A stretch of 64,000 nucleotides of DNA, from NCBI GenBank assembly GCA_030390025.1, contig CM059446.1, positions 60,760,001 through 60,824,000 on the forward strand, in the 5' to 3' direction. Below the pieces are notes generated by a model. It worked only from the letters and a program-made list of their open reading frames with translations. It searched no databases and was not told the DNA's origin. The position numbers and the translations under genes were made by a program. Positions within the stretch are counted from its first letter, which is position 1, and each line of letters begins with the position of its first letter. Positions 8,561-60,757 of the stretch are shown here, in pieces. The DNA is from Squalus acanthias (Eukaryota).

Positions 8561-9896
8561 TTAACTCCAGTACCAGTACAGGATAAATTTTGTGAAAGTA
8601 AATTATTCTTATCTGGTGTTCGCTCTTGTATGCCAGTGTGACAACCCCTAAACACTGATGTAAACTCCTGTATACTGAATATACCCACTATAGCACGTCA
8701 GAGTAGCAGTGTTAGTAATGGACAGTCCAATATTTAGTTCTGGTCCTTCTGTACAATAGATGGAACAGCCATATAAATGATGTGCATCTCCTATGGAATT
8801 TATATCTCCCCAGACAAACGGCTTTACAGCTCTCTATGAAAAGTGCGCCACTTTTTATACCACGTAAACTTTGTCTCCACAATTTAAACCTATTCTGCTG
8901 ATTAAATAAGCAAAACTCCGCAGAACAAAAAGAGATGCAAAATGTCAGAAGAATAAATAAATCAAAGTATGAAGCATAAAAGTTCCAAAAAGATTTAACA
9001 AATCAAACTTTGTACTTGTGTCTCCTTGTTAAGTCACAAGCCTCTTGATTGAATTACATCTGTGTAATTCATTCCCAGCATCAGTTCCTTACGTCGTCCA
9101 GCAACATGTGGTGCATTTATAACCAAACAGCAATGTTGCTCCTTCTCTCTCCTTGTCCCCTTTCCTTCGTTCGATGTGAAGTACTTTGTTGGAAAGTAAC
9201 CAGACTTGTCCCAGCTATAGCTTGTGATTTTCAGTAACAAGCTGGAACTAAGCATCCTCTTCTTGATTCTACCAGATTCTGTGTCCTATAGAACGTTTTC
9301 AACCCTGATAATGCAGTCTGTTCGGTTGCAATTTAAAATTGTTTGCTAAAATAATGTGGTTCTGGATCGTGTTGAAATAGGTTCGATATCCTTTTAAACA
9401 TGGAGCTGAAAGCTGTGCTTGCATTCCATGCAGCAAAAATTGTTTGTAAATGATGGGAACATTTTATGAGGTTAACAGATTGAAAGGATTAATTACAACA
9501 AAGCTGGGTAAAATTTCGCATCACTAGTAATAAAATGACGTCTCTTGGTATTCCATGCAGTATGTATTCCTTTTTAAAAACTTCAAACACCTGTAGCCCA
9601 ACAGTTACTGAAAAAATGGGAATTTGGGGAATTGTCATGACTGCCTTGTAAACTGTACTCAACTCTAACTCTGGAAGTGACTTGATGTTCTTTAATGATT
9701 CTACAGATTCACTTTATTGATCCGCTCAGGAGTGTGCATAATGCAGTGCTAGAACTTAGTCTTTCAAACATCCAATGTCATTGAGCTCTATGGTGCCGTA
9801 TACTCCTGGAGTAATGCACTGTGCCACAGAGAGACAGGACAAAAGTGACCAGTGCCGTACTTCACTGAATTCTGATGTCTGTCCTCTTACTTTCAG

Positions 9897-28534: not shown

Positions 28535-29256
28535 CATAGAATCATAGAATGGTTACAGCACACAAGGAGGCCATTCAGCCCGTTGAGCCCGTGCCAGCTC
28601 TCTGCAAGAGCACTTCAGCTAGTCCCACTCCCCCCCGCTATCCCTGTAGCCCTGCAAATTTTTTTCCTTCAGGTACTTATCCAATTCCGTTTTGCAAGCC
28701 ACGATTGAGTCTGCCTCCACCACCCTTTCAGACAGAGCATTCCAGATCCTAACCACTTGCTGAGTAAAAAAGTTTTTCCTCATATCCCCTTTGGTTCTTT
28801 TGCCAATCACCTTAAACATGTGTCCTCTGGTTCTCGACTCTTACACCAATGGGAACAGTTTCTCTCTATCTACTCTGTCTAGACCCATCGTGATGTTGAA
28901 CACCTCTATCAAATCTCCTCTCAACCTTCTCTGCTCCAAGGAGAACAACCCCAGCTTCTCTCGTCTATCCACGTAACTGAAGTCGCTCATCCCTGGAACC
29001 ATTCTCGTAAATCTTTTCTGCACCTTCTCTAAGGCCTTCACGTCTTTCCTAAGTGCGATGCCCAGAATTGGACACAATACTCCAGTTGAGGCAGAACCAG
29101 TGTTTTATAAAGGTTCATCATAACTTCCTTGCTTTTGTACTCTATGCCTCTATTTATTGTGACTCTATTTATGAAGCCCAGGAGCCCGTATGCTTTTTTA
29201 ACCGCTTTCTCAACCTGCCTTGCCACCTTCAGTGATTTGTGCACATATACCCCCAG
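28535..29256 (-). mobile_element. CR1 LINE 3' fragment interrupted by the Penelope-like element (resumes at 31448-31500)
   Basis: Fragmented ORFs 28619-29244 (YKSKEVMMNLYKTLV, FSLEQRRLRGDLIEV) and tail catagaatcatagaat. The CR1 sequence continues after the TSD (tacccccagatctctctgttcatgcacc). Confidence 0.9.
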
Positions 29257-31447
29257 CTGTTGTTGTTTGGCGAACCGACCTCTACCTAGCGGAAGTTGAA
29301 CACCAACTCTCTGACACCTCCTCCTACCTCCACCTGGACCATGACCCCACTACCGAACATCAAGCCACCGTGTCCAAGACTGTCACTGACCTCATCTCCT
29401 CTGGAGATCTTCCCCCCCCCCCCACGGCCGCCAACCTCATAGTTCCCCAACCCCGCACAGCCCGCTTCTACCTCCTTCCCAAGATCCACAAACAGGACTG
29501 CCCCGGTAGACCCATCGTTTCAGCCTGTTCTTGCCCCACGGAACTTATCTCTTCCTATCTCGACTCTATTTTTTCTCCCCTTGTCCAGTCTCTTCCCACC
29601 TACATCCGCGACTCTTCCGACGCCCTCCGCCATTTTAACAGTTTCCAGTTTCCCGGCCCCAACCGTCTCCTCTTCACTATGGACGTACAATCCCTCTACA
29701 CCTCCATTCCCCACCAGGATGGCCTGAGGGCGCTCCGCTTCTTCCTTGAACAGAGGCCCAACCAGTCCCCATCCACCACCACCCTCCTCCGCCTGGCTGA
29801 ACTTGTTCTCACATTGAACAACATCTCCTTTGACTCTACCCATTTCCTCCAAATTAAAGGTGTTGCTATGGGTACCTGCATGGGTCCTAGCTATGCCTGC
29901 CTTTTCGTGGGATATGTGGAACACTCTTTGTTCCAGTCCTACTCGGGTCCCCTCCCTCACCTCTTTTTCCGGTACATTGATGACTGTATCGGTGCCGTCT
30001 CCTGCTCTCGCCCTGAACTAGAACATTTCATTCACTATGCTTCCAATTTCCACCCTTCCCTCACCTTCACATGGTCCATCTCCGACTCTTCCCTTCCCTT
30101 CCTCGACTTCTCCATCTCCATCTCTGGGGATAGGTTATTGACTAACATTCACTACAAGCCCACTGACTCCCACAGCTACCTGGACTACACTTCCTCCCAC
30201 CCCGCCTCCTGTAAGGACTCTATTCCATTCTCCCAGTTTCTCCGTCTCCGCCGCATCTGCTCTGATGATGCCACCTTCCATACCAGTGCTTCTGACATGT
30301 CTTCCTTTTTCCTCAACCAAGGATTCCCCTCTACCGTGGTCGACACGGCCCTCGACCGTGTCCGTTCTATCTCCCGCACTTCTGCCCTCACCCCTGCCCC
30401 TCCCTCCCGGAACCACGATAGGGTTCCCCTTGTCCTCACCTTTCACCCCACCAGCCTCCACATTCAACGGATCATCCTCCGCCATTTCCGCCACCTCCAG
30501 CGTGATCCCACCACCAAACGCATCTTCCCCTCACCTCCCCTTTCAGCATTCCGTAGGGACCGCTCCCTCCGCGACACCCTAGTCTACTCCTCTACCACCC
30601 CCAGCACCCCTTCCCCTTCGCCCGGCACCTTCCCGTGCACGCGCAGGAGATGCAACACATGCCCTTATACCTCCCCTCTTCCCACTGTCCAGGGCCCCAA
30701 ACACCCCTTCCAGGTGAAACAGCGATTTACTTGTACTTCCTGCAATTTAGTATACTGTATTCGCTGCTCACTATGTGGACTCCTCTACATTGGGGAGACC
30801 AAACGCAGATTGGGTGACCGCTTTGCGGAACACCTCCGTTCAGTCCGTAAGGGGGACCCCGAGCTCCCGGTGGCCTGTCACTTTAATTCACCGCTTCACT
30901 CCCACTCTGACCTCACCGTCCTCGGCCTATTACACTGTTCCACGGAAGCGCAGCGTAAGCTCGAGGAACAGCACCTCATCTTTCGTTTAGGCACGCTACA
31001 GCCCTCTGGACTCAATATCGAGTTCAACAATTTTAGATCATAACTTCAGCTCCAATCACATTTATATTTTATTTTTATTTGTCCCCCCCCCACCTTTTTT
31101 TTTTCCTCCTAGAAGCTGGCAGCTGTCCTTCATTCTGCCAGTGGATTTCACACTTCATTCAGCCTTAATCTGTCACATTAACACCACCTCTACCCTTGCA
31201 TATCTCTTAATGTCTCTTAATGTCTCTTCATCTCCCCCTTTGTTCCTTTATCCCCTCCCCCTTTTCCCAGCTTTACCCTGGCCTTAAATCTATTTGATTT
31301 CCGGCTCTTCCCAGTTCTGATGAAAGGTCATCGACCTGAAACGTTAACTCTCTTTCTCTCTCCACGGATGCTGCCTGGCCTGCTGAGTTTTTCCAGCGTT
31401 TTCTGTTGTTATTTCGGATTTCCAGCATCCGCAGTATTTTGCTATCG
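29257..31447 (+). mobile_element. Penelope-like element (Neptune-type), 5'-truncated, RT + GIY-YIG endonuclease, flanked by the 9-bp TSD TACCCCCAG
   Basis: The ORF is open to the stop at 31043. RT motifs LPKIHK, RPIVS, MDVQSLYTSIP, GVAMG, FRYIDD, LPFLD, HYKPT; Cys linker CTRRRCNTC; GIY-YIG VYCIRC..CGLLYIGET..RLGDRFAEH...GLN. TACCCCCAG at 29248-29256 and 31448-31456. Confidence 0.95.
31313..31349 (+). ncRNA. Minimal type I hammerhead ribozyme motif in the PLE 3' terminal region
   Basis: AGUU-CUGAUGA-A-[AGGUC auc GACCU]-GAAA-CGUU-AACU: both core boxes, a 5-bp stem II, palindromic stem III (AACGUU) and a 4-bp stem I. Confidence 0.75.
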
Positions 31448-31599
31448 TACCCCCAGATCTCTCTGTTCATGCACCTCCTTTAGAATGGTACCCTTTAATT
31501 TGTGCAGTCATCAAGACATCTTAGCTTTTGTATTCAGTCTCTCTCATTATAAGTCCCTAAATCCATTTACTTTTTCTAATGACTATTTACGTATTTATG

Positions 31600-48250: not shown

Positions 48251-49200
48251 GTACATCCTCCCCTCTTGTGGTTTCTACATATTTGTAAAGAGAATTGTTG
48301 TGCGTGACTGGGATATCTGCAATAAGTTGGATTGAAGGGAGATTTGTTTGTGTATTATTATGCAGCCAGCCAGGAATTTCTTACTGAAATTCCATGAAGC
48401 TCATGCAAAAAACAGTGTTTGAAATGTCGAGTTCATTTCTTCACGTTTGAAAGGTGTACTAGACTTACAGAAATGTTGTAAAAATCTGTGGATGGAATAG
48501 TACCTGGGAGCTGGTGCAGTGGTGGGGGGAGAGGGGCTTAATAAATGTCAGCCTCCTCCAACATGTATCAGAAATAACTAAGCAACTAGTTTCTAAAATG
48601 AATTTGGTTTTCATTTCTGAGTATCTTGACATCCAGGGACTTGGGAGAGGAGGACCGAGTCAAATAGAAAGTAAGAGCTCTAGAGATTATCAAGTTAGTT
48701 TGATCAAAATATTCAGATTGTTCCTACATACCTGAGAATGATCACAAGACAACAGTCAAAAAACGCTGGGTTTATTTGAGACCTTAAACCACAAGATTGT
48801 AACTCGAGAACTTTAGAACTATAACCTAAACCACAAGATTAGATTACAGCTTTCAGACTGCTCCGAGTTGTCAGTTGATTTTGATAAGCTGTTTTGATTT
48901 AATTGTATAGGGTGATATTCAATTTCTTTGATAAAAGCTGACCACGTGAACGCCAGCTTTTAGCGTGCTCCATGTCGTGAATGTCTGATCATGCCCGCAT
49001 GATCAGACATGCCTCGTTTGGTAAAGTTAGTGTGCAACTAGACTATACAGGCTTCAAGGTCCCCTCGGCTGTGCTGAGGTTGCTGATTTCAGCCTGGGTG
49101 ATAGTAGGGTCGCTTCAGTTGGCCTGAGCTCCCCCTGGGTTAGAGAAGGAAAAAACACGCAGTCCTGATCGCTATCCACTAATCCCTGCTGGAAGTTTAT

Positions 49201-49322
49201 GATGCGGAGATGCCGGTGTTGGACTGGGGTGGACAAAAGTGAGAAGTCGCACAACACCAGGTTATAGTCCAACAGTTTTATTTGAAATCACAAGCTTTCG
49301 GAGCGCTGCTCCTTTGTCAGGT
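49201..49322 (-). mobile_element. 122-bp Penelope-type tail insertion flanked by the 9-bp TSD GAAGTTTAT
   Basis: GAAGTTTAT at 49192-49200 and 49323-49331; the insert interrupts a SINE and begins with a hammerhead motif. Confidence 0.75.
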
Positions 49323-49324
49323 GA
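49288..49324 (-). ncRNA. Minimal hammerhead ribozyme motif with a core mutation (CUGACAA), probably inactive
   Basis: Minus strand: UCAC-CUGACAA-A-[GGAGC agc GCUCC]-GAAA-GCUU-GUGA. Stem I UCAC/GUGA and palindromic stem III AAGCUU; the G8>A change fits CpG decay. Confidence 0.65.
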
Positions 49325-49624
49325 AGTTTATAGTCTATGGACATTGGATGAGGACAGAATTGGTGAATGACCAACTAAAACTCGCTGGCTATGCATGCAG
49401 AAAGTTTGGCCATGGGGTACACTGGCATGCGGTGCAGGGTGTGTGATGCCAGGGGGCCTCTGGAAGAGTGAATGCCTTCAGGAGGAGAAGGGGAGAGAAT
49501 CAGTTTAAAAAGATGTAAAGTCATTATTGCAGTGCTATCAATTCAAATCTAAGGCAATTGTTTAGTTGTTGATGATTACCCTATAGTTAATTATTCATTG
49601 ATTTGTTTCTTGCATTGCTTACAG

Positions 49625-59613: not shown

Positions 59614-59850
59614 GTAAATGTCACGGGCACGTGCTGAATCAGGGGTCTGGGCAGAGTGTGCCCTCCCACCCTTCAGCCTTGAAGATCGGTGCAGTAGAAA
59701 ACTGGAAATCAAATCTGAGATTCTGCGGAGTAAGTGGGTGGCCATCCGGCAGGGTAGGAAGAGGCGGGCAGTGCAGAAATCCTCCGGGAGTGTGGCACTC
59801 TAAAAACCAGTTTCAGTGCTGAATACCAGTGAGGGTGACGACACCTCGGG

Positions 59851-60557
59851 ATCGCTGCTGCTGATCGCTAGTGACCGGTGATCGCTGCTGCTGATCGCTA
59901 GTGACCAGTGATCGCTGCTCCTGATCGCTAGTGACCGCTGATCGCTGCTCCTGATCGCTAGTGACCGGTGATCGCTGCTGCTGATCGCTAGTGACCGGTG
60001 ATCGCTGCTGCTGATCGCTAGTGACCGGTGATCGCTGCTGCTGATCGCTAGTGACCGGTGATCGCTGCTGCTGATCGCTAGTGACCGGTGATCGCTGCTG
60101 CTGATCGCTAGTGACCGGTGATCGCTGCTGCTGATCGCTAGTGACCGGTGATCGCTGCTGCTGATCGCTAGTGACCGGTGATCGCTGCTGCTGATCGCTA
60201 GTGACCGGTGATCGCTGCTGCTGATCGCTAGTGACCGGTGATCGCTGCTGCTGATCGCTAGTGACCGGTGATCGCTGCTGCTGATCGCTAGTGACCGGTG
60301 ATCGCTGCTGCTGATCGCTAGTGACCGGTGATCGCTGCTGCTGATCGCTAGTGACCGGTGATCGCTGCTGCTGATCGCTAGTGACCGGTGATCGCTGCTG
60401 CTGATCGCTAGTGACCGGTGATCGCTGCTGCTGATCGCTAGTGACCGGTGATCGCTGCTGCTGATCGCTAGTGACCGGTGATCGCTGCTGCTGATCGCTA
60501 GTGACCGGTGATCGCTGCTCCTGATCGCTAGTGACCGGTGATCGCTGCTCCTGATCA
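59851..60557. repeat. 30-bp minisatellite, 23 full units plus a partial one (atcgctgctgctgatcgctagtgaccggtg), embedded in an AmnSINE2-like SINE (~59630-60750)
   Basis: Units 5-22 are identical; variants occur only in units 2-4, 23 and 24. No spacers. Confidence 0.97.
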
Positions 60558-60757
60558 CAAGCGACTGCTGATCGCTGCTTGAAGATGTGGGCAGCTGGTG
60601 ATGGCAGGATCAAACTTGTCTGTGATGCCCCCCCCCCCCATTGGTTGAATAGCCTGCTAACACTCACCGCCAAGGCTCCCACGTGAGGAATGCCCATTTG
60701 GTGAGGTACTGCAGGGCTGCCAGACCTGTGGAACGGTACTGGGGCATGAGTCATGAC

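Follow-up and report, generated by a model that had tools for sequence, protein, structure and literature searches.

The window, the whole 64,000-nucleotide stretch of Squalus acanthias DNA that was analysed, contains a 122-bp minus-strand insert that interrupts an older dispersed repeat. The features of this locus, together with a second Penelope-like element (PLE) used for comparison, are as follows. Here and below, statements on published systems refer to the available portions of the cited texts.

49060..49450 (approximate limits), plus strand: host repeat, old and SINE-like, broken by the insert
49192..49200, no strand: target-site duplication at the 3' end of the element; the AT within it is also that of the element's ATG
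49199..49236, minus strand: PLE "tail", the ~35-40 nt that are not in inverted arms, ending at the ATG of the ORF (PMC11167929)
49201..49322, minus strand: insert, a segment of an EN+ Penelope-like pLTR, the leader from the predicted transcription start to the ORF start
49277..49282, minus strand: AATAAA, conserved in the family, candidate poly(A) signal
49288..49324, minus strand: minimal type I hammerhead, with stem I at 49324-49321/49291-49288, core at 49320-49314, extra A at 49313, stem II at 49312-49300, GAAA-GC-UU at 49299-49292 and the putative cut between 49292 and 49291 (PMC4209133)
49315, minus strand: G8A (CG to CA) in the catalytic core, predicted to be inactivating
49323..49331, no strand: target-site duplication at the 5' end of the element; 49323-49327 (ACTTC on the minus strand) is a 5-nt microhomology with the element
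49327, minus strand: initiator-like A, position -7 relative to C3 and 30 nt downstream of the TATA box that longer copies carry; transcription is predicted to start here, and the family's 5' ends peak here
29248..31456, plus strand: 5'-truncated PLE of another family, with RT, GIY-YIG and a hammerhead at 31313, and the duplication TACCCCCAG at 29248-29256 and 31448-31456

The 9 bp GAAGTTTAT lie at 49192-49200 and again at 49323-49331 with 122 bp between them, as the first-pass annotation had reported. This annotation had also placed the insert inside a SINE, and other copies of the flanking repeat do continue across the site. The flank repeat occurs at 12 other genomic places with 70-90% identity. 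Two of its copies (L172 and L175) are uninterrupted at the site and carry a single GAAGT-like stretch, which indicates that the 9 bp are a true duplication, made on insertion. The repeat is called SINE-like on the basis of its size, dispersal and B-box-like motif, and is not assigned to a named family. At the 5' joint, 5 nt (ACTTC) are common to element and target, and at the 3' joint 2 nt (AT) are. Because both words match element and target, the element-like span is 49199-49327, and the first two bases of stem I fall in the target duplication. The 122-bp insert had been said to start at the hammerhead; the fold of this motif is borne out below, but in the stem I given there as UCAC, the first two letters, UC, belong to the duplicated target. 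On the minus strand, the hammerhead motif is followed by AATAAA, as originally read, and then by ~75 nt more of insert. The insert has neither a TATA box nor an ORF. With its tail present and an inverted arm absent, it is a solo direct stub.

Stems I and II formed when the window copy was folded with RNAfold, whereas an Rfam scan of the whole window returned no hammerhead at E<=1. The core had been written as CUGACAA, with the suggestion that a consensus be checked for CUGAYGA. Genome-wide counts with 35-nt patterns gave 14,797 matches for CUGAYGA versus 409 for CUGACAA. The family core is therefore CUGAYGA, and CUGACAA, which lacks G8, is a minority form of it and not valid as a working core. 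Since CUGAYGA dominates the family, the window copy is a G8A variant: A occupies 49315 and the C3-G8 pair is absent. A subfamily with CUGACAA as its own core was also considered and rejected, as this form makes up only 2.7% of the matches and its presence in the top insert matches reflects query bias. G8A opposite C3 likely kills the ribozyme of the window copy. In the anole element G8C abolishes cleavage, G8A not being among the variants tested in the available text (PMC11167929). The substitution presumably arose through CpG decay.

The family conforms to the PLE minimal hammerhead core, CUGANGA...GAAA..UH. The cores of 59 parsed copies comprised 49 CUGANGA, 8 CCGACGA, 1 CUGACAA and 1 other. 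The earlier proposal of a real hammerhead fold gained support from compensatory pairs in stems I and II of family variants. Across 28 distinct variants, 98% of 252 stem I and II cells were paired, versus 24-50% in slid controls. Covariation amounted to one two-sided change per stem, C-G to U-A in both, in 6 and 3 of the 28 rows; these are two events in related subfamilies and the rows are not nine independent events. Loop II varied from 3 to 9 nt among the same variants. The CCGACGA (U4C) copies represent several subfamilies (L040, L049, L071, L081 and others) and include ORF-bearing ones. U4 is normally conserved in hammerheads, so the U4C lineages may have multiplied with a ribozyme of low activity.

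The hammerhead at 31313 has the same architecture as the motif in the insert but other stems, as previously noted, and its element likewise has a 9-bp duplication. The element at 29248-31456 contains a 539-codon open frame that runs from RT to GIY-YIG, and because this frame is intact the element is considered a young insertion. Elsewhere in the window, 59700-60719 is occupied by an array of 30-bp units, the central ones 98-99% alike. An inverted-repeat match at 9219-9250 (72% over 32 nt) showed no wider likeness and was dismissed as chance.

The origin of the insert was investigated by a search of the 3.7-Gb genome, whose repeats resemble those known from cartilaginous fishes. With the 122-bp insert as query, the best 40 matches were 99-100% identical, and a 31-nt piece of the tail had 32,980 exact matches genome-wide. 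Several of the 30 loci fetched with the insert as query reach up to 1.4 kb upstream, into an ORF. One of them, L011, encodes an RT (PF00078, E 7e-8) and a GIY-YIG domain (PF01541, E 1.5e-4, 22.4 bits and thus just below the cut-off of 22.6) upstream of a module identical to the insert at 122/122 positions; L011 was found using the insert as query, and the unselected ORF-bearing copy L085 scores 119. The autonomous partner that had been sought was thereby found. In another copy, L053, the module passes directly into an ATG and a 498-aa open frame. These N-terminal 498 aa overlap the frame of L131, so that the ORF is pieced together from separate family copies, and from these copies it is a single ORF with RT and C-terminal GIY-YIG, as in EN+ PLEs. 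A 571-aa open frame was not accepted as a genuine ORF because it is chimeric, its first 44 aa coming from an inverted arm. The pLTR was found both after the ORF (long copies) and before the ORF start (L053). The presence of the module on both sides of the ORF indicates that the 122 bp are a pLTR segment that serves as 3' end and as 5' leader. The ORF is only 34% identical to that of the 31313 element, in agreement with the original assignment of the insert to a second PLE-type family. Both PLE families of the window share an RT-EN linker of the form C-x4-C-x2-C, which fits the CX2-5CxxC of the Neptune clade. According to the available text of PMC8557442, a linker of this type is common to Neptune and Nematis, and the autonomous family is described as Neptune-like.

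The main sample, unbiased for 5' length, was made up of the 100 tail matches that come first on contig C1 (first 9.6 Mb); it includes two duplicate loci, and three of its end calls at -13 are alignment artefacts. ORF sequence was present within 1.5 kb upstream, on either strand, in 18 of these 100 tail-anchored loci. We conclude that the insert is a stub of a protein-coding Penelope-like family, one among tens of thousands, and not a separate ribozyme element. Two kinds of secondary duplication were observed among the copies. L075 and L076 share the same insertion and flanks 17 kb apart, a segmental duplication, and L204-L205 with their neighbours (G000:C1:83.406-83.412 Mb) are four copies with one joint at 1.5-2.6-kb spacing, a local tandem amplification that contains a stub.

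The first-pass annotation had left a choice between an extremely truncated PLE and a tiny non-autonomous, retrozyme-like element moved by PLE machinery. The former stands, as a very short PLE copy; the latter, taken as a discrete unit that has an RNA of its own and is mobilised in trans, is very improbable. Many copies are of like length, and a preprint of 2026 traces the origin of animal retrozymes to pLTRs (10.64898/2026.07.22.740005, available part), as this second option would expect. However, the short copies have no private sequence, matching ORF-bearing L011 at 122/122 positions, and the same stem II variants recur in short, middle and ORF-bearing copies. A second hammerhead on the same strand was found within 1.5 kb in 2 of the 100 loci, neither of them an array, and none in the window; no tandem hammerhead arrays were thus present in the 100 tail-anchored loci (1.5 kb) or in the window. 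Moreover, the unit has no TATA box, the insert begins 31 nt upstream of the cut site instead of being bounded by cut sites, and the joints vary from locus to locus.

Most copies of the family are not solo. An inverted arm was present in 75 of the 100 tail-anchored loci and lacked the last ~35-40 nt, beginning 26-37 nt short of the end of the tail pattern in 60 of the 64 scored. The 3' ends of the family lie at the ATG or slightly before it. Target-site duplications were 12-13 bp long in 54 of the 75 inverted copies. Shorter duplications (4, 4, 10 and 10 bp) are frequent among solo copies whose joint shows an overlap, as in the window copy. Both PLE inserts of the window do have 9-bp duplications, as had been pointed out, but this length is not typical and, given the 12-13 bp of the inverted copies, was ruled out as a hallmark of the family. 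In the flanks of L031-L130, many insertions lie in other LINE-like repeats and the duplicated words recur (such as TTCATAAA(C/T)AGA, GA(A/G)TATATTCAA and TCTATTTATGAA), hinting at a target preference.

The 5' ends of the family were counted relative to C3 of the hammerhead core. The sense 5' ends of the 100 tail-anchored loci fell in -20..+9 in 47 cases, further upstream (to -1408) in 37 and further downstream in 16. When the ends of both arms were combined (n=171, with 4 inverted arms without anchor left out), the density per nucleotide was 5.1% at -5..-9, 0.2-0.55% beyond -20 and 0.4% at +11..+30. The plot of 5' ends had been proposed as a choice between a sharp peak and scatter, and both were obtained: the ends scatter over more than 1.4 kb and also concentrate at the ribozyme's 5' edge, at a predicted transcription start. 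Instead of a single base, the peak spans a zone, with ends from -14 to +10. Genome-wide, a non-templated purine was found at -8 in 3,216 of 19,805 arms (16%) and at -12 in 220 of 13,437 (1.6%), while 2,542 arms break at -6, one base after the -8/-7 breakpoint. The A at -7 is that of TCACTT, 30 nt behind TATATA in the subfamily of the window copy. A TATA-like box precedes the initiator-like A by 30-34 nt in 14 of the 15 long copies examined and by 25-27 nt in L097; some subfamilies, with few copies, have the initiator at -13. The element match of the window copy starts exactly at the -7 A (49327), the modal end. Five of nine other short non-inverted junctions, which exclude L053 as the 5' end of a long copy, start at -8..+2, and L041 (+7) has a mini-inversion. 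A literature search of limited coverage found no description of a pile-up of PLE 5' ends at a predicted start.

The window copy is unlikely to stem from a cDNA that began at the 3' pLTR of a read-through transcript and underwent ordinary early 5' truncation, its end being set where 5 nt happened to match the target. The ACTTC microhomology at its joint, the scatter of family ends as far as -1408 and the strong 5' truncation typical of PLEs (PMC8557442, available text) would all suit such an origin. In contrast, the end density at -5..-9 is at least ten times the background on either side, the tenfold step between -8 and -12 is left unexplained, and the window copy ends at the modal base. Less probable still is that the ribozyme fold itself causes the pile-up, either because RT pauses at a folded or protein-bound hammerhead or because cDNAs are joined through the self-complementarity of stems I and II. 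Joints at +5..+10 and +23 do use stem II and the AAGCTT palindrome, and there is a slight bump at the stem I/cut-site position. However, RT reaches the fold from its 3' side, and there (+11..+30) ends are no denser than background, at 0.4% per nt; the maximum is found upstream of the fold, and solo copies without a partner arm share the same end.

The cut site (+29) was the end of about 5 of the 100 sense arms and gave a mild bump among 1,403 nearby breakpoints. It was rejected as the main 5' end. Among the first 100 listed, read by eye, 10-16 ends fell there versus 5-8 at its neighbours. The bump is partly due to overlap through stem I, and the 30 loci scored by script gave 3 ends at this site. 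Most joints have an inverted partner arm, and 40 of 71 overlap, which blurs and may bias the end positions. Among the first 100 listed, again read by eye, G exceeded A at -8 (81 to 19), compared to 37 to 63 at -12. The partner arm accounts for the G at -8 in 17 of the 25 cases read, and 7 of the 8 others resemble template jumps. The G excess, which may reflect a copied cap or a template jump, is thus no proof of a cap. Four independent copies (L147, L148, L153 and L155; joint near 1500) share the joint TGTG/ACTTC, the slash marking the junction, and L144 and L154 have CACCTG/ACTTC. These joints look like RT jumps from the 5' end onto similar words in the hammerhead.

Taken together, the stub, a short copy of the family's terminal module (pLTR), was probably made when the RT of the element primed at the tail and copied its own transcript as far as the predicted 5' end, where it ran off. 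The proposed mechanism is transferred from in vitro work on the anole Poseidon PLE, in which, in the available text, both strands are cut and RT starts on uncut RNA at two internal sites that bracket the tail (PMC11167929). The transcript would start at the predicted -7 position and carry the hammerhead, AAUAAA and tail, followed by the ORF. The GIY-YIG nuclease would make a 12-13-nt staggered cut in the target, and RT would prime at the tail, which lies near the 5' end of the transcript and immediately precedes the ORF start. The resulting cDNA of about 128 nt would stop at the predicted transcript start. In the usual case the second strand would be primed as well, and the two cDNAs joined head to head. 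In the window copy, only the tail-bearing arm would have survived, the end of its cDNA pairing by means of ACTTC with the overhanging target; of the 12-13-nt overhang, 3-4 nt would have been trimmed, leaving the 9-bp duplication. For this single copy, the 5-nt microhomology could by itself have fixed the end. Its template was presumably not ribozyme-cut at the copied site. Other templates, by read-through or jump, must exist because 37 of the 100 arms extend past the predicted start, and the data on the long copies fit either origin. Penelope of D. virilis, in the available text of PMC2377424, has an internal promoter that is TATA-less.

It is doubtful, though conceivable, that the stubs record a strong-stop-like intermediate, in which RT, primed at the tail within the leader of the ordinary mRNA, leaves the capped start and must jump to the start-to-AAUAAA repeat at the 3' end of the mRNA in order to copy the ORF. 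If so, the pLTR would act like a retroviral U3-R-U5, about half of the insertions would be failed jumps, and the TGTG/ACTTC and CACCTG/ACTTC joints (6 of 30) would be mis-jumps caught. An incomplete literature search found no prior account of a PLE strong-stop with a pLTR or of Neptune-type PLEs in shark genomes.

The window insert itself is unremarkable, a stub of a familiar class that has decayed. Without a TATA box, without an ORF and with a broken core, it is likely inert and a dead end. With young copies in the tens of thousands, the family offers a usable fossil record of how PLEs reverse-transcribe, a process still poorly resolved. This record points to the transcript start, and to most templates not being ribozyme-cut at the copied site. 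It is also a caution that a short repeat with a hammerhead in a genome of this sort can be a pLTR stub and not a retrozyme.

The pLTR, tail, inversion, TATA/TCACT motif and minimal hammerhead are already in print (PMC3846280, PMC8557442 and PMC6155905, in their available portions). As far as the accessible text of PMC8557442 and PMC3846280 describes them, EN+ PLEs of the Neptune/Nematis type have the same RT with C-terminal GIY-YIG, C-x4-C-x2-C linker and pLTR at both ORF ends. They also share the 30-40-bp tail, the inverted 5'-truncated arms (75/100 here) and the TATA box with a TCACT initiator-like motif; in rotifer Penelope pLTRs, a TATA-20 bp-TCACT layout matches this family (PMC3846280). 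Unlike in these descriptions, the window copy is a solo direct stub and the 5' ends of the family accumulate at the predicted start. In the available part of PMC4209133, the minimal hammerheads of metazoan PLEs are of the same type I, with an extra base between 9 and 10.1, G10.1-C11.1, a palindromic 15.2/16.2 and a 4-bp stem I. Their known variant core is U3-A8, whereas the window copy has C3 with A8, unpaired. The non-LTR retrozymes of metazoans (PMC7229834; 10.64898/2026.07.22.740005, both as available) resemble the stub in being short, non-coding and pLTR-related and in carrying a type I hammerhead, but they are tandem 150-450-bp repeats with at least 2 ribozymes and circular RNA, in contrast to the single stub here. 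The Anolis Poseidon element PAc, as documented in vitro in the accessible text of PMC11167929, starts synthesis at two sites that lie about 35 nt from each other and delimit the tail, as is proposed here; its main template is uncut RNA, and its products shorten as the template's 5' end does. The start of the PAc ORF is overlapped by both hammerhead and tail (the latter ~111-118 nt into the ORF), whereas in the present family the two are upstream of it, with the tail ending at the ATG.
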